DNA from: an uncultured Spirochaetota bacterium | GTDB taxonomy: Bacteria; Spirochaetota; Spirochaetia; SZUA-6; Fen-1364 | Length of the DNA stretch: 64,000 nt | Assembly (NCBI GenBank): GCA_963768665.1 | Contig: CAVYIU010000009.1 | Location: 434,821 to 498,820, forward strand | Reading direction: 5' to 3' | In this document: positions 10,093-62,413 of the stretch, in pieces | Layout: each line of letters opens with the position of its first letter | How positions within the stretch are numbered: the stretch's first letter is position 1 | The notes under the pieces: generated by a model | What the model saw: the letters and a program-made list of their open reading frames with translations, nothing else | The model's database searches: none | What the model was told of the DNA's origin: nothing | Translations under genes and position numbers: made by a program

Positions 10093-10122
10093 GGATTCTT
10101 CCGATGCAATGGAGGGGGAGCC

Positions 10123-11883: not shown

Positions 11884-11992
11884 GGCCTCGCTCTCGGACT
11901 TCCCTGTCCTCGGGCTCCCGCGAATCCGCTCCGCGGATCGCTGCCACCCCGGGCCCGGCCTCGCCCTCCCGCCGCGCTACCGCGCGGCTGGG

Positions 11993-41096: not shown

Positions 41097-42155
41097 TCAC
41101 CCCTGCCTCGGTGAGACCTTTTCTGGTTCTTTGTACGGCTCGTTCTTCTTCAGCACCCAGAACGCGGACTCTGCCAGGTGCCGAGCCACAGCACCTATGG
41201 CTACCGAGGAGCCCTTTCGCCCGCGAACATGAAGGTACAGCCTGGCGCAGTGTCGCGTGCTCCACCCCCGCTGAGCATGGTGAGCGGCCACCGCATTGGC
41301 CGCTTCGATGAAAGCCCACTTCAGGTACTGGTTGCTTTCGGTTCTCATCCTGCCGTAGTGTGTCTTGCCTCCGCTGGAGCTCACGCGGGGGGTCGTGCCC
41401 GAATAGCTGGAGAACTGTGGGGCACAGGGAAAGCGCTCGATGGTGCCCACCTCCCGCTCGATGACGATGGACAGGATGTCTGCCACCCCTGGCAGACTCT
41501 TCAGCAGCCGCATGTTCGGGGTAAGGGCAATCTGCTCGCGAATGCGCTCTTCCAGTTCAGCGATCTGCAGGCTGAGGAAGTCCAGCAGTTGCAGGTGCTG
41601 CGACAGACAGCGCCCTGTCTCAGAAGGGAGGCGGGCAACAGTTGTCTCAAGCCATGCTCGACCCCCCTTGGAGAACACGCTCACCCCCTCCGCGGGTGAC
41701 AGGGCGTACTTGGAAAGCAGAGAGTGGATACGATTTTTGATGGATGTACGCCACGCGCACAGAGCCACGCGCGTACGAGGCAACTCGCGTTGGTCACGGA
41801 GATTCGCCGGTGGCAGCCAGACCGAGGGCAGGCTGCCGAGTCTCAAAAGAGTGGCCAGTCCGTTGGCATCCAGTTTGTCGGTCTTGTTGACGTGACCCAT
41901 GAGAAGCTTTGCCTTGGAAGGGTTGGTGAGCAGGGGCTGGCACCCTGCAGCTTCGATCTCATCGGCGATCCAGTACCAGTTGCCCACGCACTCCAAGGCC
42001 ACGGGGGTGCCGCTGGGAAAGCGAGAGAAGAATGAGGACACCGCACCGGGCTGGTGGTTGAGGCGGACACGATCAAGGACTTGGCCCGCGGCGTCCTGGA
42101 CCTCAAGCTGGGAATAGTGCTTGTGCGCGTCACACCCGATGGAAAGCGATTGCAT
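41097..42155 (-). CDS. IS110-family transposase
   Basis: N-terminal DEDD-type LSIGCDAHKHYSQLEV. C-terminal Transposase_20-like LLKSLPGVADILSIVIEREVGTIERF. About 350 aa. Confidence 0.8.
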   Translation of the reverse strand: MQSLSIGCDAHKHYSQLEVQDAAGQVLDRVRLNHQPGAVSSFFSRFPSGTPVALECVGNWYWIADEIEAAGCQPLLTNPSKAKLLMGHVNKTDKLDANGLATLLRLGSLPSVWLPPANLRDQRELPRTRVALCAWRTSIKNRIHSLLSKYALSPAEGVSVFSKGGRAWLETTVARLPSETGRCLSQHLQLLDFLSLQIAELEERIREQIALTPNMRLLKSLPGVADILSIVIEREVGTIERFPCAPQFSSYSGTTPRVSSSGGKTHYGRMRTESNQYLKWAFIEAANAVAAHHAQRGWSTRHCARLYLHVRGRKGSSVAIGAVARHLAESAFWVLKKNEPYKEPEKVSPRQG

Positions 42156-42401
42156 AGCGAACCTCCTCGCGGGCACAAAAGGCCCGACTACGCTCGACTG
42201 TAGCGAGGAATGCCGCGCTGTGATATTATCATGTCGTTGCAGTTGTCGCCTTAACGTGGTTATTCGTGCGGCGGGGGCGGTCTAGGAGCGCGTAGGGTAT
42301 AGCAGGGACGCGATGGACCTCTGCGGCAGCTGGCTGCCGATCGAGCCCAGGGCGCCGCGTTCATCTGGTAGTGAACTCTCACATCCCGTCCTCTTTGGTG
42401 G

Positions 42402-43916
42402 CTACCCCATGCACGGAAGCTCATGCAACGCGTTTTCAGGGCCTTCAATCATCCTGTGACGGAACAGTTTCAGCAGATTGTGCGTCAGGCAGACGAAGGC
42501 CCATTCGCGGCGCACCTTCGCGCGCCCGCGTTGTGAGAACCTACGGAAGCCGCGCGCCTGCTCAATCTGCCCGAAGACGGGTTCCACGATCACCTTGCGC
42601 CGTGAATACACCAACTTGCCCGCGCTCCCTTTCAGTTTCTCACGCATGAGAGTCTTGGGACTCTGCTGCCCAGCAGAACCCCCCGATGGGACGGCGGCCT
42701 CAGTCCTCTCGCGGCCGACGGCGATGTAGGGATCAATCCCACGCTCCTGCACCTTTTGCACGTTGTCTGCTGAAAAGTAGCCGCTATCAGCCAGAAGCCT
42801 CTGGGGCCGCTGGGCATGCATGCTGAGCATTCTCTCCACCATCGGCACCAGGTACTCCTGGTCGGGAGACTGGTTGCTCACCCCGTGGGCGATGATCACC
42901 TGGTGAGCTGCATCCACGATGACCTGTGCGTTGTAGGCCTGGATGTAGGCCCCGTCCTTGACCATGATGCAGCTCTCTGGATCTGTGAAGTTGCGTTGCG
43001 CTGCCGCCTTGGGCTTGCCGTCCATCTCGCTGGCTACCCGATGCAAGGGCAACTCTGGCTGCCTACTTCCCTTCTTCTTTTCGCTGTTCCTCTCGGGAGC
43101 AAGGGCGTCGGCCTGCTGGCTGGCTTTCGCCGCGCGGGTGCGTGCACGTTTGCGCTCGTGGTCCGCCAGCGCTTCGCCCTCGCTTTTGGCGCTCTGCCGC
43201 TGGGCCTGCTCGCGCAACTCCTCAGCTCTGGTTTCGGCGGCTTCCTTTTCCAAGGCGGCCTTCGCCTCGCGAAGCCGCAGCAAGCGTGTCTCCCGTCGGG
43301 CCAATTCCTCAGGCAGATCCTCTTTGTCCTGCCCGGGCCCGTACAACTCATCCTCCTCCCGATCCACCTCATCGGCGCGTCGCAGCAGCTCCGCCACCTG
43401 CTCCTGTAGACGTTTCTCTTCCTCGTTCATCCGCTTGTAGCTCATCGCCTTGTGCTTGCTCGCTGCCGCCTTGATCTTCGCCCCATCCAGCGCTACTGCC
43501 CCCAGCTTCACCAGTCCGGCCTCCTGGCACAGGCGCAGCGCCTCCACGAACAGCCTGCCCAGCGCTTCCCCGTGCTCCAGTCGAAACTGGTTGATCGTGG
43601 TGAAGTGCGGATGCTGGCCACCACTGATCACTCGAAAAGCCACATCTTCATGCGTGGCCCGCGCAATTCGCCGAGAGGAGAACACCCCAACACTATATCC
43701 ATACACCAGAAGCCCCGTCATCATTCCGATCGCGTAGGGCCTCTCCCCGCGGTGATCCTTGCGTTGGACCTCATCCTCGATCTCGCCCAGATTCATCTGC
43801 TCCATCACATCCAGCACGAAGTAGGCCAGGTGTTTCGGGGGCAGCCATTCCAGCGGAGACGGGGGCAATAGGTATGGTTGTCGCGGCTCCCAAGGGCGAT
43901 AGTTTTTCTCTCCCAC
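42402..43916 (-). CDS. IS1182-family (IS5-related) DDE transposase
   Basis: N-terminal DUF772-like region (LLPPSPLEWLPPKHLAYFVLDVM ... MMTGLLVYGYSVGVFSSRRI), a K/E-rich coiled-coil middle, and a C-terminal DDE region (LLADSGYFS). 504 aa. Confidence 0.75.
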   Translation of the reverse strand: MGEKNYRPWEPRQPYLLPPSPLEWLPPKHLAYFVLDVMEQMNLGEIEDEVQRKDHRGERPYAIGMMTGLLVYGYSVGVFSSRRIARATHEDVAFRVISGGQHPHFTTINQFRLEHGEALGRLFVEALRLCQEAGLVKLGAVALDGAKIKAAASKHKAMSYKRMNEEEKRLQEQVAELLRRADEVDREEDELYGPGQDKEDLPEELARRETRLLRLREAKAALEKEAAETRAEELREQAQRQSAKSEGEALADHERKRARTRAAKASQQADALAPERNSEKKKGSRQPELPLHRVASEMDGKPKAAAQRNFTDPESCIMVKDGAYIQAYNAQVIVDAAHQVIIAHGVSNQSPDQEYLVPMVERMLSMHAQRPQRLLADSGYFSADNVQKVQERGIDPYIAVGRERTEAAVPSGGSAGQQSPKTLMREKLKGSAGKLVYSRRKVIVEPVFGQIEQARGFRRFSQRGRAKVRREWAFVCLTHNLLKLFRHRMIEGPENALHELPCMG

Positions 43917-48887: not shown

Positions 48888-49920
48888 GCGTGAACCGATC
48901 GTTTCGCACGATTCTTGTAACGGGCGGAGCGGGATTCATCGGGACCAACTTCATCCGCTATCTGTTCCGGCAGCCGACGTTCATCGGGAGGGTTGTCAAC
49001 CTCGATAAGCTCACCTATGCCGGGAATCCGTCGAGTCTCAAGGACATCGCATCAGATAAGGGTGACCGCTACCGCCTGGAGCGGGGCGACATTTGCGATC
49101 CCTCGCTCGTGGAATCGCTTTTCGAGCGGTATCAGTTTGACGCGGTGGCGCACTTTGCCGCAGAAAGCCACGTTGACCGCTCGATCCTTGGTCCGCGGGA
49201 GTTTGTGAATACGAATGTGCTCGGAACGTTCACGCTCCTCGAGGCAGCGCGCGCCCAGTGGAAGGAGCGACGCGACGTGCTCTTCCACCACGTGAGCACC
49301 GATGAGGTCTACGGCTCCCTCGGCGCGGAAGGGCTTTTCGTCGAAAACACGCCCTATTCCCCTCGGAGCCCCTATTCTGCCTCAAAGGCCGCTTCCGACC
49401 ACCTTGTCCGCGCGCTTTTCCACACGTATGGCCTGCCGGTGACCATCTCCAACTGCTCCAACAACTACGGTCCATACCAGTTTCCAGAAAAGCTCATTCC
49501 CCTGATGATCCTCAATATGCTCGAAGGAAAAGCCCTCCCGATCTACGGGGAGGGAAAGAACGTGCGGGATTGGCTCCACGTCGAGGATCATTGCTCCGCA
49601 ATCTGGACGATCATGTCACGCGCGACGGCCGGGAAACCTATAACGTGGGCGGTGAGACGGAGAAGCGCAACGTCGACATCGTTCAGCGCCTCTGCGAGAT
49701 TGTTGCCGAGGAAACCGGCGTGCCAACGGCGAAGTATACGCAACTTATGCGCTTTGTCGCCGACCGGCCTGGACACGATCAGCGCTACGCCATCGACTGT
49801 TCGAAGCTGAAACGTGAGCTCGGCTGGAGCCAGTCTCGCGGATTCGATGACGGCCTCCGCCACACCGTCCGCTGGTACCTCGATAATCAGGACTGGGTGA
49901 ACAGCGTCCAGGACGGGTGA
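48884..49920 (+). CDS. rfbB: dTDP-glucose 4,6-dehydratase; frameshift near 49590-49620
   Basis: [14 protein letters not shown] and the YSASKAASD catalytic YxxxK. The C-terminus continues in ORF 49570..49920. GTGA overlap with rfbD. Confidence 0.8.
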
Positions 49921-49980
49921 ATACCGAAAGTGGATCGAAGCAAACTACGCAGCCGCCGGGCGTACGTGAGTCCGACCGAG

Positions 49981-52590
49981 CTATCGGCCCGGACTGCGTA
50001 TCCCCTCCATCCGCCTCAGGAGGCCGCCCTTCCCCGGATCCTTGGCCCCTGACCGCTCCGTCCCCATCCCCACGAACAGCACCCCCGCCACCGCGTAAAG
50101 CACCGCCACCCCCCAAACGTCCCCCGTAAATCCCGCCGACGTCGAAATCACCCTCGCAAGCACTGCACCGGACACGGACAAGGCCCCGTTCACGCCCCAG
50201 GCCCACGGGACGAGCGCCCCGGCGCGCCCAGACAGCTGCGAAAGGCCCGTGGGGAACGGAATGCCCAGGCACAACCCGAGCGGAGCTACCAGGACGACGC
50301 GTCATCGCGGCACGCAGGGCGAGGGGCAGGCCGAGTGTCGTGCGGAGCAGCGGGGACAGGCCGAACAGGAAGAATGCTGAGTAGACAACGATGCCGCCAA
50401 CCGCGGCCAGGACCACGACGCGTGGCCTCGCGTGGCGCCTCCCCGCGAGGAGACTGCCTGTTCCAGAGGCTACAAGCAGGACGGTTATAATGATCGTATT
50501 TGCATATGCGGGGTCAGCGAGGTAGAAGACGAAGCGCTGGATCAGGCTGATCTCGGCCAGCATGTAGCCCAGGCCCAGGCACGCGAAGTAGGCGAGGATC
50601 CGGCCCACACGACCACCCGCGGTCAGCAGCTGCCTCGGGCGGGTGAGAAGCGGAAGGAGGATGACTACGGCCCCGAAGATGATGGCCTGCAGGAGGGTTC
50701 CAAGGAGAAGGAGATAGCCCCATTCCTCGGGGAACTCCCCGGCTCGGGAAAGCATCTGAGGCACCGTGCGAGGCTTGAGATAGCCCGAGTAGTACGGCCG
50801 GTCGTCTGTAGCAGGCCGAATGTCGAAGATGTACCTGGCGTACAAGTTGGCGTCTTGACCACTTTCCAGGGCGCCCATAATGCCGCGGTAGAGGTCGGCA
50901 GGGCGCAGCGCGGGGCCCGCGTCAGCCGCCGCGGCTTCCTGGGCAGAAGTGACGCCCGTGCCATATGCCTGCTGGTAGCCCTTTAGCATGTCGTCCAGGG
51001 AAACGCCAGCGGCAGGGATACCCGGGTACCAGTCGATGTCAAAAGACATTCGCTGGCTGAACCGGTTCAGCGCGGCAATCTCGCGTGCCGTGAAGTCGCC
51101 GTTCTTCACGAGCACCGTGGCCGTCGAGAGCAGGAGGCTGAACGCGTACATGCTCTTCCCGGGTCGCGGACTCCCTGTGCGCGCAGGGATTGGACGATCG
51201 TCGTCAGGAGCTTCGGCACGTTGCGCGGCGGGCTGAGCCGGTCCCACACCGTGATGGAAAGGATCCCGCCGGGCGCAAGGCATCGGACGTAGTCGCTTAT
51301 CGCTTCCGACGTATATGTATAATTCTCGTCCACCGAGTATCCGCCCGCCTGCGAAAGCCCTACCGAATCGATCAATCCAATCTCCACGAGGTCGAACCGC
51401 TCAGAGGTCGAGCCTGCGTACGCCCGCACCTCGGAGCGCACCGTTTTCACTCGGGCGTCTGCAAGAAGGTCACCCGTGTAGGACCTGACATAGGCGTTCC
51501 CTTGCAGAAGGCCCAGCACGTCGCCGTTTGACTCGACGACGGTGACGGAGCGGGCAGAGTGGTGCAGCGCGGTGTGGACGCCGGCGCCGCCGCCGAGCTT
51601 CAGGATCAGAACGCGCGGCTTGGAAAGGAGCTGGTAAGGCGCGGACATCGGGAGGTAGTCGATGTACGCCTCCTCGGAGGCATCGAGCTTCCGCATGATT
51701 CCCACGGGCCCGTTGCCATCGACGAACATTCCCAGGAAGGCATTCTGAGGCATCTTTGACAGGGATGCGGCGGCGTTGTCGCTTAGTCCCGGGGCGAAGT
51801 GGAAATAGGAGCTGGCAAAGACGTGGGTCTCCCCCAGCGGGCTGAACGCGGAGGCTACCTGAGACGCATCAGGGTATGCCCGCGCGTAGCTCTCGGACTT
51901 GAAGTCGGATACCTGCACGGCGCCGAAACGCGCCAGGAGGACAAGGCTTGCGGCAAGTGCGACGAGGCACGCCGTCAGCTCCGGAATGCGCAGGTGATAG
52001 CGGCCGCGCTGGACGTTCCACTGCATGCAGCAGAGGAGCGAAGGGAGCCCCGCGATCCCCACAATCGGAAAGATGAGGAACGCCGGCGGGAACAGGAACA
52101 TGAAGCCCAGGATGATCAGGCCGCCCAGGCCGGAGCCCAGCATGTTCCAGAAATAGATGCCGTGCGCGTGGCTGGCAAAGAGAGTGAACATCGTTCCGAT
52201 GAAGACGCCGGCGAAAAAGAACGGGAGGCCATAGAGGGCGTAGTACGCGGCAATCCACCACAGCTGCGACGGGTCCGAGGCAATGAGCACGGGGTTGAAG
52301 GGCACCCGCTGCGCAAGGGTGTGGGCGAGTGCCACGGATGGCGCCAGGGCGAACGCCGACGCCAGCGTCCAGGCATCCGGCCGCGCCCGGACGCTTCGAT
52401 CCACCAGCGTCAGGAGCGTCCCGGCGAGGCCGAAGCCGAGCAGCGCGATGCTGATGACCATGGAGCCAAAATTGGACCAGCTGGCAACGGAAAAGACCCG
52501 CATGACCTCGATTTCAAAGGCGAGGATGGTGAGCGACACCAGGAGCAGCGCGGCGACACGTGTGTCGGCGAGCTTCATGGGCCGCAGCAC
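49981..52590 (-). CDS. polytopic membrane protein with spermidine/spermine-synthase-like domain; at least 2 frameshifts
   Basis: N-terminal part has about 8 TM helices (ORF 51106..52590). It is followed by an aminopropyltransferase-like Rossmann region (VLILKLGGGAGV, FDLVEIGLIDSVG). Coding continues in ORFs 49745..51283 and 49981..50274. Confidence 0.55.
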
Positions 52591-53861
52591 TACTGGGTGG
52601 CTCCCGTAGTTCCCGCAGCCGGGAGGGTTGTGGGGCTGGCTCCCGTCGCCTCCGTTGATCCCGGCACCGCACCGCTGTGGACCCCGCCGCGACTGGTAAA
52701 CGGAACGAAGATCTCCTTCCGCTTGCCCTTGAAGATGTCCTCCCGGTCAAGCGTGACTGTCCCGTCAGGCGCTACGTGCTTGGTGATCTTGAGGATGGTC
52801 TGCCCGGAAGGTGGACCCACCGGGATGACCATGATCCCATCCGGGGCGAGCTGCTTCAGGAGCTCGGGTGGGACGTGGTCGATGCCGCAGGTGACGATGA
52901 TGCGGTCGAAAGGCGCATGCTCGGCCCAGCCGAAGTAGCCGTCGTCGATCTTGCGGTCGATGTTGCCGAACTCGGGGTAGGCGGCTTCGTGCTTGCGGTA
53001 GATGGCGTCGGTCTCCAGCGCAAGCGGGCGCACGATCTCCACCGTGTAGACGTGGCGGCACAGCTCCGAGAGGAACGCGGACTGGTAGCCCGATCCCGTC
53101 CCGATCTCCAGGACCTTCTGGTCGGGCTGCGGGTTGAGGTTGTCGGTCATGCGGCCGACCATGAGCGGGCCCGAGATCGTCTGCCCATAGCCGATCGGAA
53201 GCACCGCGTTCTCGTATGCGCGGCGGGTATCGCGGGCGAAGAACTCCCGGGGGGCCCTCAGGAACGCCTTGAGGATGCGCGAATGGGTGATGGCGCCGGT
53301 GGAAAGCTCCACGAGCGCCAGGTCCCACTTCTGGGCTAGGAACTTCTCCTTCTGGTCCGTATGGGCCAGCATCCATGCCACGAACGCGGCCTTGCTCGTT
53401 GTTGGAGGAGCCTCGCTCCGGGCGGCGATGTTGTAGGACTGCGGACCGTCGTTCAGGATGATCGTCCCCGACTCGCCGATGGGGAAATCCAGCCCCAGGA
53501 CGGCCGACTGGTCGGCACCCGGCTTCTGGGAAACGGCCGCGGGCGCCGCGGGAACCGCCTGCACAGCGGGGGTCGTTGTCACATCGGCAGGAGATCCCTG
53601 TACGAGCGCGGAGGAAACCCCGGGATCGACGATGAGAAGCAGGGCGATGAGAACGACGAGCCCGCCTGCTCCGGCCACGGCCGCGGCCAGGAACCTGCGT
53701 TTCCGGGGCCTGCGGGCGACAGCAGCGACCACGGGGGTCGACACGGCAAGTTGTGCGACGGCTGACGGCGCGTGCCCCGCCTTCTCGTCCTTGTATCCGC
53801 ACACAGGGCAGACGCTGCCCTCTGGCAGATCAAAGCCGCATTCGGGACATGGGTTGCTCAC
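52590..53861 (-). CDS. protein-L-isoaspartate O-methyltransferase (Pcm) domain protein with N-terminal zinc ribbon and TM segment
   Basis: N-terminal CPECGFDLPEGSVCPVCGY, a TM helix, then the Pcm-type SAM-binding motif VLEIGTGSGYQSAFLSEL. It overlaps the downstream gene by 1 nt. Confidence 0.65.
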   Translation of the reverse strand: MSNPCPECGFDLPEGSVCPVCGYKDEKAGHAPSAVAQLAVSTPVVAAVARRPRKRRFLAAAVAGAGGLVVLIALLLIVDPGVSSALVQGSPADVTTTPAVQAVPAAPAAVSQKPGADQSAVLGLDFPIGESGTIILNDGPQSYNIAARSEAPPTTSKAAFVAWMLAHTDQKEKFLAQKWDLALVELSTGAITHSRILKAFLRAPREFFARDTRRAYENAVLPIGYGQTISGPLMVGRMTDNLNPQPDQKVLEIGTGSGYQSAFLSELCRHVYTVEIVRPLALETDAIYRKHEAAYPEFGNIDRKIDDGYFGWAEHAPFDRIIVTCGIDHVPPELLKQLAPDGIMVIPVGPPSGQTILKITKHVAPDGTVTLDREDIFKGKRKEIFVPFTSRGGVHSGAVPGSTEATGASPTTLPAAGTTGATQ

Positions 53862-53909
53862 GCGCTCACCGACTCCTTCAACATCACCTGCATTCTTATC
53901 GACCAGCCG

Positions 53910-54308
53910 TCACGCGGAATCGAGCGGTATGGAGATGACGGCGGGAATCCTTTGAAAACGCTCGTCCAATGAAAGCATGCGCGCGCCGGTGTCTATGGCA
54001 ACGGACGCGATCCAGACGTCGTTGGTGGGAAGCGGGGTTCCGAGCTTCCGGAGGGTCGTCATCAGCGTTCCGTACCGCTCGGCAACCCGATCGGAGACGG
54101 GCACGATAGATACGCCGGGGAGGTGCAGAAAGCTCCCGAGCTCCTTGAGATTCGCACCTTCGCGGCTGCCGCTCGCGAACCCTGCGTACAGTTCGCCGAG
54201 GACGATTGTCGGGACCACGACTTCGTCAGCCGCCTCAAGGAGAGCCTGGATCTGCGGATGCCCGCGCTTGAACGCCGCGTACGCGCTGGTATCCAGGCAG
54301 AGCGTCAT
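53910..54308 (-). CDS. vapC: type II toxin, PIN-domain ribonuclease VapC (pair 1)
   Basis: MTLCLDTSAYAAF with a PIN acidic-residue pattern. ATGA overlap with the upstream antitoxin. Confidence 0.7.
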   Translation of the reverse strand: MTLCLDTSAYAAFKRGHPQIQALLEAADEVVVPTIVLGELYAGFASGSREGANLKELGSFLHLPGVSIVPVSDRVAERYGTLMTTLRKLGTPLPTNDVWIASVAIDTGARMLSLDERFQRIPAVISIPLDSA

Positions 54309-54559
54309 GATTGCCAGTTCTCCGCATCGATGGCGTCAAACAGTGAGGTCGCTTCGCGAAACGCGGCCAGCTCGGCTTCGTTCCACGTCCCCGCAAGCGC
54401 AGCGAGGTCGCGCTTTTTCTCCTGGTCGGGGCTCATTCCCAGGCCCTTTTCCAGCAGGCTGATGATCACCCTGTTGAGACTGGATCCCCGGCGCTTGGCC
54501 TCTTTGCGGATCTCTTTCTCAACGGGTTCTGGAAGGTCCCGAAGCGTTATTTGACTCAT
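54305..54559 (-). CDS. type II antitoxin (ribbon-helix-helix, VapB/FitA-like) (pair 1)
   Basis: MSQITLRDLPEPVEKEIRKEAKRRGSSLNRVIISLL. RBS GGAGG lies 6 nt upstream of this ATG. The ORF track extends it to a TTG at 54592. Confidence 0.65.
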   Translation of the reverse strand: MSQITLRDLPEPVEKEIRKEAKRRGSSLNRVIISLLEKGLGMSPDQEKKRDLAALAGTWNEAELAAFREATSLFDAIDAENWQS

Positions 54560-54683
54560 GATCTGCCTCCATGCATGCATGATCTGAGTCAATTTATATC
54601 TGCTTCTGATTCGCCTGTCAACTCATATATTCCATCCAGCAGTGACATTGATGTCAATCAGGCGGCGATGCATATTTATAGGC
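54560..54683. promoter_or_regulatory. divergent intergenic region between two VapBC pairs, with palindromes TGACATTGATGTCA and CATGCATGCATG
   Basis: The palindromes lie between divergent antitoxin starts. Type II antitoxins autoregulate at such operators. Confidence 0.45.
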
Positions 54684-54929
54684 ATGAAAAGAACGCAGGT
54701 CCAGATACCTGATCCACTCTACCGCGAAGTCAAGCGGGTGGCAGATCTTCAGGATTGGAGCGTCTCTGAGGTATTCAGACGTGCTGCCGAGCTGCTGGTG
54801 GCTCAGTTCCCTCCCCATAAGCAGCAGGGCGCCTGGACTCTCCCGGTTCCCCGAAAAATGGGCTTGCGGTTGATCCCCCCGGCGGACTGGGGGGACCAAC
54901 TGACGGCGGATGAAGCGGGTCGCGCGTAG
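54684..54929 (+). CDS. type II antitoxin (RHH/CopG-like) (pair 2)
   Basis: MKRTQVQIPDPLYREVKRVADLQDWSVSEVFRRAAELLV is a RHH antitoxin pattern. It is followed 10 nt later by a PIN gene. Confidence 0.6.
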   Translation: MKRTQVQIPDPLYREVKRVADLQDWSVSEVFRRAAELLVAQFPPHKQQGAWTLPVPRKMGLRLIPPADWGDQLTADEAGRA

Positions 54930-54938
54930 GCAGCACCG

Positions 54939-55373
54939 ATGATTTCAGTGGACGCGAACATTATGGTCTACGCGCTGAACGAAAACATGCCGGAACAGCA
55001 GCGGGCGTGGAACCTTCTCCTCGATCTGAGCGCGCGTGATGACGTGGTGATCGCGGAGCAGGTGCTCGTCGAAGTCTACCTGCTGATTCGCAACCCCGTC
55101 GTGTTTCCCCGGCCTTGCTCGTCAGAAGATGCTGCGCAGGTCTGCCAGGTTTTCCGATCGAATCCCAGGTGGAGGCTGGTCGACTGCGCGCCCGTGATGG
55201 ACGATGTGTGGCGCCATGCCGCAGCACCATCATTCGCGCGTCGCCGAATCATCGATGCGCGGCTTGCTCTGACACTGCGAGCAGCCGGAGTAACAGAGTT
55301 CGCCACTCAAAATGCAAAGGATTTTGCGGAATTCGGTTTCGATCGCGTCTGGGACCCGCTGGAGCAGGAGTAG
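54939..55373 (+). CDS. vapC: type II toxin, PIN-domain VapC (pair 2)
   Basis: MISVDANIMVYAL has the PIN N-terminal Asp. 144 aa. Confidence 0.7.
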   Translation: MISVDANIMVYALNENMPEQQRAWNLLLDLSARDDVVIAEQVLVEVYLLIRNPVVFPRPCSSEDAAQVCQVFRSNPRWRLVDCAPVMDDVWRHAAAPSFARRRIIDARLALTLRAAGVTEFATQNAKDFAEFGFDRVWDPLEQE

Positions 55374-55440
55374 CCCGGCAACTGACAGCCGGGCTACTGC
55401 AGCTTGAATATTCCCCGGTATTCGGCTAAGCAGAGCGGAC

Positions 55441-56625
55441 ATGGAAAGCGAACGCGTCAGGCTGACAGTTGGTGAGAGAGAGCTGATCCTCGTGGGCACG
55501 GCACACGTTTCGCGTGACAGCGTGGACGAGGTGAAGGCCGTCATCGCCGAGGAAAAGCCTGACCGGGTGTGCGTCGAGCTTGACGACGGGCGGCACACCT
55601 CGATGAGCCAGGGAACGAGCTGGCAGAATCTCAACATCGGGAAGGTAATCCGGGAGGGGAAGGGGTTCCTCCTGATGGCGAACCTCGTCCTGGCTTCCTT
55701 CCAGCGCAGGCTGGGACGCGACCTTGGCGTGAAGCCTGGCGAGGAAATGCTTGCCGCCGTGCAGGCTGCCCAGGAGCTGGGGATCCCCTATTCGCTCTGC
55801 GATCGGACCATCCAGGTCACCCTGCGCCGCGCGTGGGGGAAGACTGGCTTTTGGGGCAAGATGAAGATGATCTCCGCGATGCTGGCCTCGGTCTTCACGA
55901 ACGAGAAGCTCACGGCGGAAGACATCGAGAAGCTCAAGCAGAAGGACGTGCTGCAGAGCATGATGGAGGAGCTCGCCGACTTCCTGCCTGCGGCCAAGGC
56001 GGTCCTGATCGATGAGCGCGACCTGTACCTCGCCGCGCGCATCCTGGAGGCCCCGGGGCGCAAGGTCGTGGCGGTCGTGGGCGCCGGGCACATGGCAGGC
56101 ATCGTGCGGCAGATCAACGAGCTGGCCGCTCGCAAGGAACCCATCGATCTTGCTCCCCTGGATGAGCTGCCGACGCGCGGCCTGGTCAGCAGGATAATCC
56201 CCTGGACCATCCCCGCCGCCATTGTCGTCATCTTCGGCCTGGGGTTCCTTCGAGCCGGTTGGGTCAAGGGCCTGGACCTTTTTCTCCTCTGGGTGGTGGT
56301 GCACGGAGGCCTGGCTGCTATTGGGTCCCTCCTGGCATTGGCGCACCCGCTGACTATCCTGGTGGCGTTCGTCGGCGCGCCTATCGGCACGTTCAACCCG
56401 TTCGGGAAGATCGGGCTCTTTACCGGCTTGTCGGAAGCCTTTCTCCGAAAGCCACGCGTAAGAGACGTGGAAAGCCTGACCGACGACGTGCTCACTTTCA
56501 AGGGCTTCTACACCAACAGGGTCACCCACATCCTGATAGTCTTCTTCCTGTCCACGCTTGGCGCAGCCATCGGCAACCTTGTGGCCTTTCCTCTCCTCGC
56601 GACGCGCCTTTTCGGGGGAACCTGA
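55441..56625 (+). CDS. TraB/GumN-family protein
   Basis: LILVGTAHVSRDSVDEVKAVIAEEKPDRVCVELD and GAGHMAGIV are TraB-family motifs. C-terminal TM helices. Confidence 0.65.
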   Translation: MESERVRLTVGERELILVGTAHVSRDSVDEVKAVIAEEKPDRVCVELDDGRHTSMSQGTSWQNLNIGKVIREGKGFLLMANLVLASFQRRLGRDLGVKPGEEMLAAVQAAQELGIPYSLCDRTIQVTLRRAWGKTGFWGKMKMISAMLASVFTNEKLTAEDIEKLKQKDVLQSMMEELADFLPAAKAVLIDERDLYLAARILEAPGRKVVAVVGAGHMAGIVRQINELAARKEPIDLAPLDELPTRGLVSRIIPWTIPAAIVVIFGLGFLRAGWVKGLDLFLLWVVVHGGLAAIGSLLALAHPLTILVAFVGAPIGTFNPFGKIGLFTGLSEAFLRKPRVRDVESLTDDVLTFKGFYTNRVTHILIVFFLSTLGAAIGNLVAFPLLATRLFGGT

Positions 56626-56645
56626 ACCAGTACGCACGTACGGTG

Positions 56646-56674
56646 TTGACATAGCGTACGTACGTTGTTACAAT
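56646..56674 (+). promoter_or_regulatory. consensus sigma70-type promoter (TTGACA-17 nt-TACAAT) with flanking GTACG palindromes, driving a near-leaderless antitoxin transcript
   Basis: Exact -35 TTGACA (56646-51), 17-nt spacer, exact -10 TACAAT (56669-74). The ATG at 56681 lies about 7 nt downstream. GTACGCACGTAC and CGTACGTACG palindromes overlap the -35 and spacer. Confidence 0.55.
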
Positions 56675-56680
56675 CGTGGA

Positions 56681-56920
56681 ATGAAGAAGCTCAGCGCTAC
56701 CAAGTTGCGGGAAAATCTCTATGCAGTGCTGGACGAGGTGCTCGAAACGGGGTCGGCGACAATAGTCGAGCGGAAAGGTCGACTGATCAGGATCGTCCCC
56801 GATTCAGCCCCCAGCAGGATATCCAGGCTCGAGCGGCACGATACCATCGTTGGTGACCCGGATGACCTGGTACATCTCGATTGGTCATCGACCTGGGGTG
56901 GGGAAGTGACGCTGTCGTGA
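56681..56920 (+). CDS. type II antitoxin, Phd/YefM family (pair 3)
   Basis: MKKLSATKLRENLYAVLDEVLETGSATIVERKGRLIRIVP matches the Phd/YefM N-terminus. GTGA overlap with the downstream PIN gene. Confidence 0.65.
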   Translation: MKKLSATKLRENLYAVLDEVLETGSATIVERKGRLIRIVPDSAPSRISRLERHDTIVGDPDDLVHLDWSSTWGGEVTLS

Positions 56921-57291
56921 TTCACCTCGACACTCACGTGGTGGTCTGGCTGTACCAGGGCGCGGCCGAGCGTTTCCCTGCGTCAGTGCGTGCAACGCTA
57001 GATACAGAGCCGCTGGCAATTTCTCCGATCGTTCTGCTCGAGATGGCGTACTTGCAGGAGATCGGCCGGATCCGAGCCTCGGCAGGAGAGATATTCGCTT
57101 ACCTCCACGAGGCAATCGGCCTGGATCAGGACCCCACATCATTTTCGGCGGTCGTCGCGCGTTCTCTTGGCCAGACGTGGACCCGTGATCCTTTTGACCG
57201 AATCATCGTGGCTCAATCCATCGCGGCTGGAGTCGGGCTCCTTACGCGTGATGAGGAGATCCGGAGGCACTTTTCCTTCGCCGTGTGGTAA
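56917..57291 (+). CDS. vapC: type II toxin, PIN-domain VapC (pair 3)
   Basis: VIHLDTHVVVWL ... ILLEMAYLQE ... THDPFDRIIVAQS PIN pattern. GTG start overlaps the antitoxin stop. Confidence 0.7.
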   Translation: MIHLDTHVVVWLYQGAAERFPASVRATLDTEPLAISPIVLLEMAYLQEIGRIRASAGEIFAYLHEAIGLDQDPTSFSAVVARSLGQTWTRDPFDRIIVAQSIAAGVGLLTRDEEIRRHFSFAVW

Positions 57292-57355
57292 TTCTCTTGC
57301 GCAATCCGGTCGGCTGATTTATTGTCCAGCATCAGAAAAGTCAAGGAGATGAAAA

Positions 57356-58231
57356 ATGAAAAAGGCTCTTCTCGTCGGCATCAATGACTACCCCGGTTCC
57401 CAGAATGATCTCCACGGATGCGTGAACGACATTACCAATGTCTATGACGTGCTCGTGAAGTACTTCGATTTCGCATCCACGGACGTGGCGCTGCTGCAGG
57501 ACAAGCGGGCCACGAAGGCGGCCATCCTGGACGGGCTGAAGGCGCTGGTGGCGCGCGCGGCGAGCGGCGACACCCTTGTCTTCCACTACTCGGGCCACGG
57601 CTCGCAGGTCAGGGACACGGAGGGAGACGAGCTTGCGGACGGCTTGGACGAGATCATCTGTCCCGTGGATTTCGATTGGGATGGCGGTTTCATCAAGGAT
57701 GACGATTTCGCCTCGCTTTTCTCCGAGCTCAAGAAGGGTATCGCGCTGGAAGTGATCCTCGACTCCTGCCATTCGGGAACCGGCACCCGGGAACTGATCC
57801 TGGACAGGACGACCCTTGGATGTGTGTCGGCCGCGGGGGCAGCGCTCTTGCTGGACGAGCAGGCCCTCTGGTCGAGCAGCCACTGCATCAGGCCGCGCTA
57901 CCTGCGGCCGCCTGCGGATATAGCGCACCGCGCTGACGAGGTGTTCGGCGGAGAGCTGAAGCGCACGCGGGCAGGGGAGGAAGTCGCCCTCAACCACGTG
58001 TTGTGGTCCGCATGCAAGTCGGACCAGTACTCGGCGGACGCGGACATCGGGGGAAAGCCGGCAGGCGCGTTCAGCTACTACTTCTGCCGCCACATCAGGG
58101 ACACGGCCGGAAAAGCCACCCGTTCCGAGCTGTTGAAGCTCGTCCGCGCGTCGCTGAAGCATGAAGGGTTTTCGCAGGTGCCTCAGCTGGAATGCGCGGC
58201 TTCCCGGAAACAGGCAGGCATCTTCAGCTGA
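57356..58231 (+). CDS. caspase-family peptidase (C14; bacterial orthocaspase/metacaspase-like)
   Basis: RBS AAGGAG. KKALLVGINDYPGSQNDLHGCVNDI. Catalytic His in HYSGHGSQ and catalytic Cys in DSCHSGT. Confidence 0.75.
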   Translation: MKKALLVGINDYPGSQNDLHGCVNDITNVYDVLVKYFDFASTDVALLQDKRATKAAILDGLKALVARAASGDTLVFHYSGHGSQVRDTEGDELADGLDEIICPVDFDWDGGFIKDDDFASLFSELKKGIALEVILDSCHSGTGTRELILDRTTLGCVSAAGAALLLDEQALWSSSHCIRPRYLRPPADIAHRADEVFGGELKRTRAGEEVALNHVLWSACKSDQYSADADIGGKPAGAFSYYFCRHIRDTAGKATRSELLKLVRASLKHEGFSQVPQLECAASRKQAGIFS

Positions 58232-58305
58232 GAGGGGTTGGGTGGGGCGGGCGGCGCCGGCGGTCTGGCCGCAGTGCCACGCAGGCGCGAGATGTCAGTC
58301 GTCGC

Positions 58306-58815
58306 TCATCCGGTCCGGTATCGGTAGACGTTCCCCTGGACACGCTCCGGGCGGAGTCCCGGAAACCGCCAGTAATGGGACACCACGCGGCTGCCGGGCT
58401 TGAGCTCTTTCTGCAGTTTTGCCTCGAGCCTTCCCATGACGAATCCCACTTGGAACACGGTGATCACGCCGTACCGGGACAGGTCGCATCTCCAGAAGCT
58501 GCCCCAGTGAATGTAGGCGCGCCCCTGGAGGCCGTTCTCCCTGATGTTGCGCCGCGAGCGGGCCACGAGGAACGGGTTGACCTCGTACCCGTGGGCTTCT
58601 GCTCCGCGCTGGGCGAGGGCGATGACAACGCGTCCGTCACCGGATCCGAGATCGGCGGCGACATCGCCCTGCGTGATATCGGCGATCTCCGCCATGACGC
58701 GGGTTTCTTCCGCGCTGCTGGGGTCATAGATGGCTCCGCGGCCAAGGGGAAAAAAAACGAAAAACACCAGGTAGGCTGCCACGGCGATGATGGCGAGCGT
58801 CACGAGCGCTGTCAT
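58306..58815 (-). CDS. small membrane-anchored class I SAM-dependent methyltransferase
   Basis: N-terminal TM helix, then motif I VAADLGSGDGRVVIALAQRG. 169 aa. Confidence 0.55.
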   Translation of the reverse strand: MTALVTLAIIAVAAYLVFFVFFPLGRGAIYDPSSAEETRVMAEIADITQGDVAADLGSGDGRVVIALAQRGAEAHGYEVNPFLVARSRRNIRENGLQGRAYIHWGSFWRCDLSRYGVITVFQVGFVMGRLEAKLQKELKPGSRVVSHYWRFPGLRPERVQGNVYRYRTG

Positions 58816-58985
58816 TGGCGGCTACTCTATCAAGGATTGGCCATGCCGTACAGCGGAGGAAGGCGGGCCTGTCGGCTCGCCCTGCGCCTTCATTCACACT
58901 GAAGCCTCCGAAAACCCGCAATTGTCTTCGTGAGGAACCGGCCGAGGGATGCTGCCTTTACATGGCTATCTATATGGCCTACTTT

Positions 58986-59240
58986 ATGGTCATGATTATT
59001 GCTAATATCGCGGACTTCAAGAATCGAATCAGCGAGATGATTTCCGCCGTGGAGAATGGTGAGGAGATCGAATTGCGCAAGCGTAACGTGCCGGTGGCTC
59101 GCATCCTCCCTGTGGCCAGGACAACTGAAAACAGGACCCAACTCGGCTGCGGGAGAAAAACGGGGAAGATCCTCGGGGACATCACGAAACCGCTGATGCC
59201 GGAGCAGGACTGGCAGATGCTTCGGACGGACGACACGTGA
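58986..59240 (+). CDS. type II antitoxin, Phd/YefM family (pair 4)
   Basis: MVMIIANIADFKNRISEMISAVENGEEIELRKRNVPVARILPV. It sits in a locally AT-rich stretch. GTGA overlap with the downstream PIN gene. Confidence 0.6.
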   Translation: MVMIIANIADFKNRISEMISAVENGEEIELRKRNVPVARILPVARTTENRTQLGCGRKTGKILGDITKPLMPEQDWQMLRTDDT

Positions 59241-59629
59241 AGATTGTCCTGGACACGTGCGCAGTGCTTTGGGCGGTTCTCGACCCGGAGAAACTGAGCA
59301 CCGCGGCGAAGCAGGTACTCACGGAGGTCTCGACCGAAGTGTACGTCTCCGCCATAAGTTGTGCGGAGATCGCCTGCGGCGTGGAGCGGAAACGCCTCGA
59401 GCTTGACCGCCATTGGAAACCGTGGTTCAGGCATTTTACCCAGTTGAACGGCTGGCGGGTCGTGCCCATGGAGCCGGCTACCGTTGAGGAGGCCTATTCT
59501 CTTCCCGAATATGCGCAGCGCGACCCGGCGGATCGCCTGATCGTGGCCACGGCGCGCATCCTCCGGTGCGCCGTAGTCACAGCGGACAGGTTGATGCAGG
59601 CGTACCCTCACGTGGACTGCGTCTGGTAA
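59237..59629 (+). CDS. vapC: type II toxin, PIN-domain VapC (pair 4)
   Basis: KIVLDTCAVLWAVLDPEKLS ... DPADRLIVATARILRCAVVTAD is a canonical VapC pattern. Confidence 0.75.
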   Translation: MKIVLDTCAVLWAVLDPEKLSTAAKQVLTEVSTEVYVSAISCAEIACGVERKRLELDRHWKPWFRHFTQLNGWRVVPMEPATVEEAYSLPEYAQRDPADRLIVATARILRCAVVTADRLMQAYPHVDCVW

Positions 59630-59852
59630 GGTCCGTGGGAAGCCACGCTGGGCGGTGAACGCAGTCGCCCAGCCGTGAAGGCGGCCGCACCATCCACTCC
59701 CTGCGCGCTCTCGGCTGCTCTCCTCCTTTACCCGGCCGCGGGTGTCTGCTATGCTTGGCCAGCGTCAAGGGAAAGGTCGACGGGGTCTGATCGTCGAAGC
59801 GCCTAAGTGGTGATCAGACGCGCAAATGGCAGTGCATTAAAAAGGAAACATC

Positions 59853-60128
59853 GTGCAGGAGACTCTCAGAACTGCAATCACGGCATTCTGCGACAACAGC
59901 GAAGAGTGGTTCTCGGGCAAGGATATTCTTTTGTTTGTCAGGGAGCTTCGAGGCATTCTCGACGCCCACCCCGCAGAGCAAGAATCCGCAGTCGACGATA
60001 TCGCCGTCGGGAAGGTGCTCGATTCGATGATCAAGGCGACCGAGAAGGCCTCGAGCGCCCTGCGGGCTGCAGCCGCGGAGTTGGACAAAGCAATCGAACA
60101 GGCGAAGAACACGCTCGCCTCCCGCTGA
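59853..60128 (+). CDS. hypothetical small protein
   Basis: 91-aa ORF after a purine-rich RBS. Predicted helical. No domain recognised. Confidence 0.35.
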   Translation: MQETLRTAITAFCDNSEEWFSGKDILLFVRELRGILDAHPAEQESAVDDIAVGKVLDSMIKATEKASSALRAAAAELDKAIEQAKNTLASR

Positions 60129-60269
60129 TTCGTGCGTCTCCATTTCAGGATGTTCGCATGACATCTCCCACGTGCACGGCAAGCATGATGATGGGTATCG
60201 CCGCAAGCAGATGAACATCATGGGTGAATTGCAGGCCGCAGGGGTATCCCGCGCACACAGGAGGAAAAC

Positions 60270-61835
60270 ATGAATCGATTCCACAGACGGCCGCAACTGG
60301 CGTTCCTGATTGTTTTTACGTTCCTCGCGATACCGCCGGTGGGCGCTGTGGCGGCAACCACGGGAGGGCCGAGCCTCGTGTTCGATCCGAGCGCATTCAC
60401 CTTCAAGTCGTTGGCAGTGGACGGCACAACCGTCACCTTCCGTGCTTACGAAAACATCGTGTGCGTAAAGAATCCCGTCGACACCAGGTATGAGACCATC
60501 AACATCTACATTCCCACGCAATACTTCGAGGGCAAGTCCGTTGGCTCCTACAACGCGGACACCGCGCCGATCTTCCTGCCGAACTCGGTCGGCGGCTACA
60601 TGCCCGGACCCGCCGGTGGGCCGGGCATGGGCCGCGATGGCGGAGCGAATGCCGCCCTGGTGGCCCTGGCCAGGGGATACGTGGTGGCAGAGCCTGGCGC
60701 CCGGGGCCGTACGAATGTTGACGCGAATGGGACCTATACCGGCAAGGCTCCTGCCGCCATCGTCGATCTCAAGGCGGCGGTCCGCTACCTCCGTTTCAAC
60801 GACAAGGTCATGCCCGGCAACGCTGAAAAGATCGTTTCCAACGGAACAAGCGCGGGCGGTGCCCTCTCCGCCCTTCTGGGAGCCAGCGGCGACAACGCAG
60901 ACTATGAGCCGTACCTGAAGGCCCTCGGCGCGGCCGATACCCGCGACGACATCTATGCAGTCTCCGCGTACTGTCCCATCACGAATCTTGACAACGCCGA
61001 CGCGGCGTACGAGTGGTTGTTCAACGGAATCAATACGTACGCCCAGATGTCATTCCAGGCTCCGCCCTCGGGCGCAGATGCTGCTGGGATGCCTGTTGAC
61101 GCAGGCACTCCCCCCGCCGACGGGACGGCGGACCAGGGCGGCCCGAATGGAGCCGGCGCAACACAGGCGTCCTTGACTCCCGACCAGGTCATGCTGTCGA
61201 GCCTGCTGAAGGCCCGGTTCCCCGCGTACCTCAACAGCCTCGGGCTCAAGAAGAGCGACGGCTCCGCCCTGACCGTCGATGCGAACGGGAACGGATCGTT
61301 CAGGGACTACGTCAAATCCTTCGTAATTGCCTCCGCGCAGAAGGCGTTGAAAGCCGGCAAGGACCTGACTTCGCTCCCCTGGATCACGATCAAGAGCGGA
61401 GTCGTCAAAGATATCAACTTCGACAGCTACGTGGCCTACGCCACCCGCATGAAGACCCCCCCGGCTTTCGATGCGGTAGACCTCTCGAACCCCGAGAACC
61501 AGCTCTTCGGCACCGCCACTACCAATGCGCTTCACTTTACCCAGTTCGGGATGGACCACACGACCAATGGTGGGTCGCTCGCCAATTCCTCCATCGTGAA
61601 GATGATGAACGCTATGAACTACATCGGCACGAAGGGGACGACCACCGCGAAGTACTGGCGCATTCGGCACGGTACAGCGGACCGGGACACCTCGCTTGCC
61701 ATTCCCGTCATGCTGGCGACAAAGCTGTCGAACAACGGCGCCGCGGTCGACTTCGCAATGCCGTGGGCCCAGCCTCACAGCGGCGACTACGACCTGGATG
61801 AGCTCTTCGCCTGGATCGCCCAGGTCTGCAAGTGA
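60270..61835 (+). CDS. secreted alpha/beta hydrolase, subtype-B tannase-like esterase
   Basis: Signal peptide LAFLIVFTFLAIPPVGAVAA. Nucleophile elbow GTSAGG. The architecture resembles bacterial tannases/feruloyl esterases. 521 aa. Confidence 0.5.
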   Translation: MNRFHRRPQLAFLIVFTFLAIPPVGAVAATTGGPSLVFDPSAFTFKSLAVDGTTVTFRAYENIVCVKNPVDTRYETINIYIPTQYFEGKSVGSYNADTAPIFLPNSVGGYMPGPAGGPGMGRDGGANAALVALARGYVVAEPGARGRTNVDANGTYTGKAPAAIVDLKAAVRYLRFNDKVMPGNAEKIVSNGTSAGGALSALLGASGDNADYEPYLKALGAADTRDDIYAVSAYCPITNLDNADAAYEWLFNGINTYAQMSFQAPPSGADAAGMPVDAGTPPADGTADQGGPNGAGATQASLTPDQVMLSSLLKARFPAYLNSLGLKKSDGSALTVDANGNGSFRDYVKSFVIASAQKALKAGKDLTSLPWITIKSGVVKDINFDSYVAYATRMKTPPAFDAVDLSNPENQLFGTATTNALHFTQFGMDHTTNGGSLANSSIVKMMNAMNYIGTKGTTTAKYWRIRHGTADRDTSLAIPVMLATKLSNNGAAVDFAMPWAQPHSGDYDLDELFAWIAQVCK

Positions 61836-62065
61836 TCTGAAGTAGGCGCACCGGCGCCAATGATTCGATCCTGCGCCGGAGGCTGGTCGCTGATTTCTCA
61901 TGCGTCCTGTACACGGCCAGCAAACGGACAAGTCCGGACGACATTCGTCTGTCTGGTAAGCAGAGTGAACGGTTCACGGTACCGCATGTTCCCTCCTGGT
62001 CGCACAGGTGGTCACAGTCACCGCTACCCGATTCTACTCCGCTCCCCACATGCAATTATGTATAG

Positions 62066-62413
62066 TGGAGGTGGCGGGAGTCGAACCCGCGTCCTAGAGT
62101 GTTGACCAAGAACCTCTACAGGTTTATCCGCCTATTAGCACCTCGATGGGGAGTTTGGGAGGCGGCATCCCGTTCCCCGCCAAAGCCTGCTTTAGTGTCC
62201 CCTGCCGCCCACAGGCGTGCGGAAAGGTGAGTACCGGTTCGTTACAGGCACCCCTGGATGTTCGCTACCCGACTCCAAGGACCCGTCGTCGCAACTAAGC
62301 GGCGAGTGCGTAATCTGCGTTGTTGGCAGTTGTTTTTTTGCCATTTTTAGGAGACTGGCGCTCCACCTGCAGCCCAGGGCCGAACCGACCCCAGTCGAGA
62401 CCGTTGCACCCCC
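62066..62413 (-). ncRNA. ssrA: tmRNA (ssrA); tag reading frame encodes ANNADYALAA*
   Basis: On the minus strand, the 5' end GGGGGTGCAACGGTCTCGAC pairs with the 3' end CACCTCC-A. T-arm GCGGG-TTCGACT-CCCGC. Internal ORF ...GCC AAC AAC GCA GAT TAC GCA CTC GCC GCT TAG. CCA is not encoded. smpB is adjacent. Confidence 0.85.

Follow-up and report, generated by a model that had tools for sequence, protein, structure and literature searches.

Predicted VapBC cassettes occupy the gaps of a conserved chromosomal backbone at a probable toxin-antitoxin accretion hotspot in an uncultured Spirochaetia lineage

The window analysed here is a 64,000-nt stretch of DNA from an uncultured Spirochaetota bacterium (assembly GCA_963768665.1, contig CAVYIU010000009.1, positions 434,821 to 498,820). 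Its region 53910-59629 holds 11 genes, read from the listing of open reading frames (ORFs) and the raw sequence, of which eight are arranged as four predicted VapBC-type toxin-antitoxin (TA) pairs and three encode a TraB-family protein, a metacaspase-like peptidase and a methyltransferase. We conclude, with a probability of about 0.8, that this region is ordinary chromosome of an uncultured Spirochaetia lineage in which the gaps of a gene backbone are filled by four unrelated VapBC cassettes, and that it represents a TA accretion hotspot rather than a remnant of an element inserted at the transfer-messenger RNA gene (ssrA). This corrects a tempting over-reading of the locus. Placed amid TA genes, genes for 'TraB', a caspase and a methyltransferase give the impression of a defence or mobile island, but these three genes are conserved scaffold, and the TA pairs alone are accessory. 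The locus is a documented case of a TA accretion hotspot from an uncultured Spirochaetia clade that has received little study, and the result is of little import beyond annotation.

Four predicted VapBC-type pairs

The four modules are predicted to be bona fide type II VapBC-like pairs. The original prediction described four PIN-domain modules, comprising two divergently arranged pairs of a ribbon-helix-helix (RHH) antitoxin with VapC and two Phd/YefM-VapC pairs, and strands and profile matches agree with this description. Each of the four PIN ORFs follows a small antitoxin ORF, and the start codons chosen for the ORFs of the block agree with the products called in the public collection.

Module 1 lies on the reverse strand and consists of the FitA/VapB-like antitoxin RHH1 (54305-54559, 84 amino acids [aa]) and the VapC toxin PIN1 (53910-54308, 132 aa; Pfam PIN, 67.1 bits). 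RHH1 matches FitA-like_RHH at 24.3 bits and VAPB_antitox at 20.2 bits, both below cut-off, and its 84-aa product is the version called in the public collection. PIN1 aligns to Mycobacterium tuberculosis VapC5 (3dbo), Rickettsia VapC2 (3zvk) and VapC1 of nontypeable Haemophilus influenzae (NTHi; 6nkl), carries the acidic residues D6, E39, D96 and D114, and scores 42 bits against the tRNA(fMet)-specific VapC equivalog, for which the cut-off is 140. Its homologues in relatives (67-86% identity) are paired with the same 84-aa partner, and the RHH1-PIN1 pair is kept in related loci L172-L177.

Module 2 runs in the opposite direction, on the forward strand. Its RHH/CopG-type antitoxin, RHH2 (54684-54929, 81 aa), matches Pfam RHH_1 at 21.3 bits, above the cut-off of 20.5; an alternative start at 54651 would give 92 aa, and both lengths are called in public assemblies. 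The toxin, PIN2 (54939-55373, 144 aa), scores 95.5 bits against TIGR00028 (Mtu_PIN_fam; cut-off 73.6), a model named 'TA system VapC family ribonuclease toxin', and 20.2 bits against Pfam PIN, which is below cut-off. PIN2 aligns weakly to VapC43 (7vwo) and carries residues D5, E45, D106 and N125/D128, the last two within the motif TQNAKDF, which resembles TNNxxEF of Shigella and NTHi VapC. A hairpin at 55363-55404 lies at the stop codon end of the gene. RHH2-PIN2 homologue pairs are present in L175-L177, and a tblastn search of plasmids with PIN2 gave no match.

Modules 3 and 4 are both on the forward strand and carry antitoxins of the Phd/YefM type. Phd3 (56681-56920, 79 aa) matches Pfam PhdYeFM at 24.9 bits, below cut-off, and is followed by PIN3 (56917-57291, 124 aa, GTG start; Pfam PIN, 42.9 bits; acidic residues D5, E42, D93 and D112). 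The PIN3 product is identical to protein P0001 and has 916 homologues, named 'PIN domain nuclease of toxin-antitoxin system'; beside PIN3 homologues in L162, L163, L165 and L175 stands a 79-aa Phd3 partner with 77-79% identity. Phd4 begins at 58962 or 58992 and ends at 59240, which yields 82-92 aa depending on the start, and it is called as 92 aa in L170. It scores 30.6 bits against PhdYeFM, above cut-off, and 28.7 bits against TIGR01552 (cut-off 20.8). The toxin PIN4 (59237-59629, 130 aa; Pfam PIN, 68.2 bits) carries D6, E44, D99 and D116. Neither PIN3 nor PIN4 had a match in PDB sequence searches.

When the four PIN proteins are aligned, the aspartate at position 5 or 6 and the glutamate at 39-45 are invariant, the third aspartate sits in TND, IID, FDR or ADR, and the fourth acidic residue sits in LDE, TRD or TAD. 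The acidic residues whose alignment had been proposed as a check of the VapC assignments are therefore kept in all four toxins. Pairwise identities of only 15-26% led us to reject paralogy of the four as recent duplicates.

Antitoxin and toxin genes are spaced by -4, +9, -4 and -4 nt in modules 1 to 4. An ATGA or GTGA overlap had been claimed for every junction, which holds for three of the four (ATGA at 54305-54308 in pair 1, GTGA at 56917-56920 in pair 3 and GTGA at 59237-59240 in pair 4) but not for RHH2-PIN2. There the RHH2 stop codon (TAG, 54927-54929) and the PIN2 ATG (54939) share a frame and are separated by a 9-nt spacer, and an upstream PIN2 start is impossible.

These features are those of type II VapBC systems such as M. 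tuberculosis VapBC5 and VapBC43, Rickettsia felis VapBC2, NTHi VapBC1 and Neisseria FitAB. Shared with them are the PIN toxin with its acidic residues, the small RHH or Phd/YefM antitoxin gene directly upstream, the promoter palindromes described below and, in three of four pairs, the 4-nt overlap of stop and start codons. The cassettes differ from these systems in their low identity to characterised members and in the 9-nt spacer of one pair.

Candidate control sequences accompany three of the modules. The 124-nt divergent control region between the RHH1 and RHH2 genes (54560-54683) has an inverted repeat and a palindrome. Specifically, the 8-nt inverted repeat TTGACTCA/TGAGTCAA (54551-54558 and 54585-54592) brackets the RHH1 start and is kept in L174, and the palindrome TGACAT-TG-ATGTCA (54643-54656) is located about 28 nt 5' of the RHH2 start. 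TA cassette 3 is preceded on the forward strand by a predicted promoter and operator (56631-56680), in which TTGACA-17-TACAAT at 56646-56674 gives 11 of 12 consensus matches plus a TG extension and is overlapped by GTACG palindromes. Such promoter and palindrome features are typical of autoregulated TA operons, and the RHH1/RHH2 and Phd3 palindromes may serve as operators.

By analogy with characterised VapBC systems, each cassette would be a two-gene operon in which the DNA-binding antitoxin (RHH or Phd/YefM) is translated first and the PIN ribonuclease second. The antitoxin would block the metal-binding acidic site of its toxin, and the antitoxin-toxin complex would repress its own promoter through the upstream palindromes. 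Upon loss of the labile antitoxin, the ribonuclease would be freed to cleave tRNA or rRNA, and growth would stop. The same analogy would predict toxicity, neutralisation and autoregulation for these pairs, along with any stabilising or anti-phage role they may have.

A conserved backbone with variable gaps

Related loci, among them those collected via SmpB and TraB homologues, are labelled here with L and a number and were compared by tblastn and blastn. The SmpB protein of the window is 93-96% identical to SmpB of metagenome-assembled genomes (MAGs) of uncultured Spirochaetota. As first described, the genes between the TA pairs encode a TraB-family protein, a caspase that carries the motifs HYSGHG and DSCHSG, and a membrane-anchored methyltransferase. 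These had been regarded as typical of mobile or defence islands, but in relatives they form a conserved backbone with pcm and a gene for a SpeE-like membrane protein, with 65-94% aa identity across many related Spirochaetia contigs. The backbone order in relatives is the caspase gene pointing right, the SpeE-like gene (about 850 aa) and pcm pointing left, TraB pointing right and the methyltransferase gene pointing left, followed by a PilZ gene. Conservation and synteny in relatives make TraB, pcm, the methyltransferase and the caspase part of the core gene set of this clade. A conserved core context in related genomes, which the original prediction had named as the observation that would tell against an island, is indeed what we find for the genes that are not TA genes.

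TraB (55441-56625, forward strand, 394 aa) is a full-length member of TIGR00261 (348.8 bits). Its homologues occur at no fewer than 80 metagenome loci from Spirochaetota, with 51-83% identity, and are syntenic with pcm and the methyltransferase gene in relatives. The gene is chromosomal, with no transfer genes nearby and no association with a mobile element. The class I S-adenosylmethionine (SAM) methyltransferase (58306-58815, reverse strand, 169 aa) matches Methyltransf_25/31 weakly and has an N-terminal hydrophobic helix, and its best NCBIfam match, an archaeal protein-lysine N-methyltransferase (82.7 bits), is below cut-off.

The TA pairs of the window occupy gaps that are short in relatives. 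The gap between pcm and TraB measures at most about 230 nt in 10 loci, and in the window it measures 1.58 kb and holds two TA pairs; sugar-metabolism genes fill the same gap in L085, L096 and L103. The gap between TraB and the methyltransferase gene is at most about 120 nt in 21 related loci, and in the window it contains a 1.68-kb insert made up of Phd3-PIN3 and the caspase gene. The caspase gene adjoins the membrane-protein gene in L085-L088, L102, L103 and L169. It is simplest to suppose that Phd3-PIN3 and the caspase gene moved as a unit, in which case the metacaspase gene and the upstream Phd3-PIN3 would have left an ancestral site by the membrane-protein gene for the TraB/methyltransferase junction in the lineage of the window.

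The TA content of these gaps differs between related genomes, as expected for the hypervariable region that the original prediction had also considered. In L174, where TraB is 99% identical in aa sequence, pcm-PIN1-RHH1 is kept and an AAA_14/DUF4143 gene stands exactly at the position of RHH2-PIN2. In L168 (caspase 87%, methyltransferase 94%), the PIN3 end, caspase and methyltransferase are arranged as in the window, but synteny stops at window position 58839, and the locus runs into PilZ where the window has Phd4-PIN4. L172 and L173 carry PemK-DUF7120 between TraB and pcm, and past the membrane-protein gene they carry MNT-HEPN, a homologue of RHH-PIN1, HicB, AbiEii and HigBA. Homologues of modules 1 and 2, and in L175 also of module 3, are found in L175-L177 at 67-77% aa identity, in other order and orientation and beside the caspase gene.

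Cassette 3 also has a sharp boundary. Phd3-PIN3 together with its promoter (window 56631-57230) recurs elsewhere at about 70% nucleotide identity, and the DNA homology begins at 56631, 6 nt past the TraB stop codon. In L162 the copy lies within an rml cluster, and in L163, L165 and L175 the copies have further TA genes as neighbours. The cassettes are probably selfish, addictive units, subject to gain, loss, exchange and reshuffling at this site within the clade.

TA clustering in the block exceeds chance: in the remaining 58 kb of the window, 77 coding-like small ORFs were screened, and none carries a TA-type Pfam domain. This analysis directly establishes the identities of the domains and catalytic residues, the order and synteny of the genes, the boundaries of the cassettes and, as described below, purifying selection.

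Like other accretion hotspots for TA and defence genes, the locus has conserved core genes that flank and interleave the cargo, and the cargo (VapBC, PemK, MNT-HEPN, HicAB, HigBA and AbiE) differs between related genomes in the same gaps. The cargo here does not occupy a single slot but is spread over several gaps of a five-gene backbone. In contrast to TA-rich superintegrons and islands, the locus shows neither an integron integrase nor an attC-like repeat, nor any further recombination site.

Several points weigh against TA accretion at a hotspot. RHH1, Phd3 and, by its Pfam score, PIN2 fall below curated cut-offs, with RHH2 and Phd4 above theirs. Clustering is gauged against the 64-kb window and not against genome-wide TA density, and the comparison that defines the hotspot consists of about four TA-bearing and about seven TA-free lineages, all of them metagenomic contigs. 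General repeat searches and the boundary comparison with L174 revealed no recombination sites or repeats flanking the cassettes. Furthermore, when the window genes are compared with their L172 and L175 homologues by the Nei-Gojobori method, the nonsynonymous divergence (dN) of the TA genes (0.14-0.22) is close to that of the backbone genes (0.18-0.25), and modules 1-3 at least may be old hotspot residents shuffled in place, not new arrivals. For each module, gain is indistinguishable from differential loss.

We also considered whether the TA genes are recent foreign acquisitions, which holds only partly. The GC content drops to 0.56-0.59 across modules 1-3, and GC content at third codon positions (GC3) is 0.64-0.79 in the TA genes and 0.79-0.83 in the backbone genes, but the divergence of the TA genes equals that of the backbone genes.

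The metacaspase gene and Phd3-PIN3

The C14 peptidase gene (57356-58231, forward strand) encodes 291 aa with p20 and p10-like regions and scores 121.3 bits against Pfam Peptidase_C14. Residues 2-280 align to yeast Yca1 (4f6o), AtMC4 (6w8s) aligns as well (expectation values of about 1e-34), and the His-Cys dyad motifs HYSGHG and DSCHSG match the same motifs in both proteins. In the p10-like segment, SACKSDQYSADA of the caspase aligns to SGCQTDQTSADA of AtMC4. Given this p10-like region, the protein is metacaspase-like and therefore not a p20-only orthocaspase. More than 120 homologues with 63-87% identity and lengths of about 287-300 aa (up to 309) were found, many of them named from Spirochaetia MAGs. 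GC3 of the gene is host-like at 0.81, and its orthology with relatives extends from about 25 nt 5' of the start codon to the stop codon. Within the clade, this metacaspase-like gene has been conserved by vertical descent.

A stand-alone caspase next to TA genes had been offered as a hint of abortive-infection or programmed-death defence. This is not supported, as the gene is mostly free of TA neighbours in relatives and the partner genes of known caspase-type defence (gasdermin, SAVED/TPR-CHAT and EACC1) are absent, its neighbours being PIN3 and the methyltransferase gene. The NF047832 model (caspase_w_EACC1) gives 42.9 bits, well short of its cut-off of 140, and PADLOC returns only generic caspase-domain and methyltransferase matches with no assignment to a defence system. 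The locus is not a caspase-centred defence island.

One lead nevertheless comes from this arrangement: a possible functional link between a bacterial metacaspase and VapBC, of a kind reported once for a cyanobacterial orthocaspase. The orthocaspase MaOC1 of Microcystis aeruginosa is encoded beside a ParE/ParD-like module, whose antitoxin it cleaves (PMC7935541). Phd3, PIN3 and the caspase could likewise be a functional three-gene unit, co-transcribed, in which the metacaspase cleaves Phd or another substrate and thereby frees VapC as a switch for growth arrest or abortive infection. Consistent with such a unit, the three genes have the same order and orientation in three lineages, namely the window, L168 and L175 (the latter with an extra 0.9 kb or so), they were apparently relocated together, and the 64-nt gap between PIN3 and the caspase gene contains no predicted terminator-like site. 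Yet the caspase gene lacks an upstream TA gene in most readable relatives (L086/L087, L088/L102 and L169) and is much more widely conserved than the cassette, its homology reaches only about 25 nt 5' of the start codon, and Phd3-PIN3 occurs without a caspase in L162 and L163. Adjacency of this sort would be expected by chance at a TA hotspot, and we consider a functional unit unlikely.

The analogy with MaOC1 is itself partial. Both loci place a gene for a C14 caspase homologue beside a type II TA pair, but the TA family is Phd-VapC here and ParDE there, and the pair here is upstream of the protease gene and without flanking direct repeats (PMC7935541). The protease here also differs in being metacaspase-like with p20 and p10 regions, conserved in its clade and mostly without TA neighbours. 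It is doubtful, though conceivable, that the locus holds a three-component module with an antitoxin-cleaving trigger, akin to MaOC1-ParDE with a PIN toxin, and that the caspase gene anchors the hotspot, with duplicated copies of its 3' end in relatives marking the limits of successive insertions of TA and Abi genes.

Copies of this kind were observed in L172 and also in L173. L172 carries three partial direct copies of the caspase 3' end, at 7774-8066, 10528-10629 and 11937-12679, besides the full gene at 13670-14536, to which they are 83-93% identical. The first and third begin at the stop codon, and the first and second end at one point, 292 nt into the gene. The copies bound segments with RHH-PIN, HicB, AbiEii, DUF2442 and HigBA, a pattern suggestive of serial insertion, or of serial duplication, at the 3' end of the caspase gene. 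Among these copies no integrase was seen, and the window is without such caspase fragments.

Integrity of the cassettes

As an alternative to accretion of working cassettes on ordinary chromosome, the modules might be decaying, non-functional relics, either orphaned or inactivated and without activity today. Several antitoxin scores under family cut-offs would fit this possibility, as would two differences in L171, which was assembled independently from the same population: RHH1 lacks 1 nt there (window 54490) and PIN2 has an insertion of 1 nt (window 55284), each of which would frameshift its gene. Either the L171 indels are assembly errors, or they mark strain variants in which antitoxin 1 and toxin 2 have been inactivated. 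It is the window versions of RHH1 and PIN2, not those of L171, that are full length and match their family profiles from end to end. All eight TA ORFs are intact in the window, the acidic residues are kept in all four toxins, and both the toxin-antitoxin pairing and the 4-nt overlaps are kept in homologues. Ratios of nonsynonymous to synonymous divergence (dN/dS) of 0.05-0.12 for the TA genes, with 0.09-0.17 for the backbone genes, indicate that the TA genes are kept by selection. Decay is thus quite improbable, and the four predicted VapBC-type modules are probably active.

The gene order of the region is not an assembly artefact, because independent ERR11594402 contigs reproduce it. Specifically, they repeat three stretches (53992-55382, 55921-58052 and 58363-61461) at 99.8-100% identity, with the PIN2-TraB joint at 55383-55920 lying outside them, and mis-assembly as the source of the gene order was rejected on these grounds.

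In L001, L004 and L009, which are among the closest MAGs, tblastn matches to an FGE-sulfatase are split around 9000-10465, and SmpB of L009 is split too. These split matches suggest frequent frameshift errors in the long-read assemblies, such that apparent pseudogenes of this clade are best treated with caution.

The interval between the block and ssrA

Islands and prophages integrated at ssrA are well known and include CP4-57 of Escherichia coli and VPI of Vibrio. The tmRNA gene of the window lies at 62063-62413 on the reverse strand (Rfam RF00023, 147.4 bits; also found by ARAGORN). The block had been placed between the rfb/pcm genes and the ssrA 3' end, and it is indeed close to ssrA but does not adjoin it. 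The interval at 59853-61835 holds two forward-strand genes, orf91 (59853-60128), whose 91-aa product is predicted to be helical, and a gene for a 521-aa BD-FAE alpha/beta hydrolase (Pfam). The former has a coding-like GC3 of 0.74 and is conserved in L170, and it has no Pfam or PADLOC match; the interval as a whole has no homologue in the related loci compared.

A degraded island at ssrA would have arisen if a tyrosine-recombinase element had brought in the block in full, with TraB, caspase and methyltransferase, and had later lost its integrase. Relatives have no counterpart of the 3.2 kb from the methyltransferase gene to ssrA (Phd4-PIN4, orf91 and BD-FAE), the TA modules are lower in GC, and synteny breaks exactly at the ssrA 3' end, where blastn homology around smpB stops (62062-62066) in 9 of the 12 closest loci. 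This position of the break, and the closeness of the block to the ssrA 3' end, are also what ssrA-integrated islands have. The resemblance ends there. No integrase had been noticed in the block originally, and we found no recombinase domain (Pfam) from pcm to ssrA (53862-62062). The 21-nt ssrA 3' end has a single match in the window at up to three mismatches, and hence no second copy, and all that blastn-short returns are chance matches of 10-13 nt. Most of the supposed island genes are core genes: TraB, pcm, the methyltransferase and the caspase are each conserved and syntenic, with GC3 values like those of the host. Moreover, L004, L007 and L099 have the backbone near ssrA without any TA gene, with ordinary genes for FMN reductase, aquaporin, MFS, PilZ, FtsW and FecR between backbone and ssrA. 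The block is not missing as a unit from relatives, where only the TA pairs and 58840-62062 vary. The ssrA island that the original prediction had proposed as one of two possibilities is largely refuted for 53910-58839, and we regard it as the most improbable of the explanations considered.

The integrases found in the window are part of a different, probable genomic island, linked to tRNA-Asn and some 30 kb away from the TA block. At 20234-49810, the tRNA-Asn gene is followed by a low-GC3 stretch with tyrosine recombinases at 20957-21607 and 22370-23566 and a Xis-like HTH_17 protein at 21714-21917. The stretch also holds genes for a PLD-domain protein, DUF499 and DUF3780, transposases of the IS110 (41097-42176) and IS5-like DDE_Tnp_1 (42402-43916) types, and rmlA/C/D/B. 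No repeat of the tRNA-Asn 3' end, as an att duplicate, was found in the window. This stretch probably represents a genomic island, bounded at its end by the SpeE-like membrane gene.

The five-gene neighbourhood

The SpeE-like membrane gene of the window (49745-52590, reverse strand) is split into overlapping ORFs of 494 aa and 512 aa (overlap 51106-51283) and ends in a non-homologous tail, and relatives carry one ORF of 844-869 aa. The split reflects a frameshift or pseudogene, or else an error of long-read sequencing.

The metacaspase, SpeE-like, PCMT, TraB and methyltransferase genes form a five-gene neighbourhood in the clade (window 49745-58815; L085-L088, L102, L103, L169 and L172). The SpeE-like protein is polytopic, TraB is TraB/Tiki-like, and PCMT combines a hydrophobic stretch with a zinc-ribbon-like, Cys-rich segment at its N terminus. 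Several products of this neighbourhood look like protein-modifying or proteolytic enzymes.

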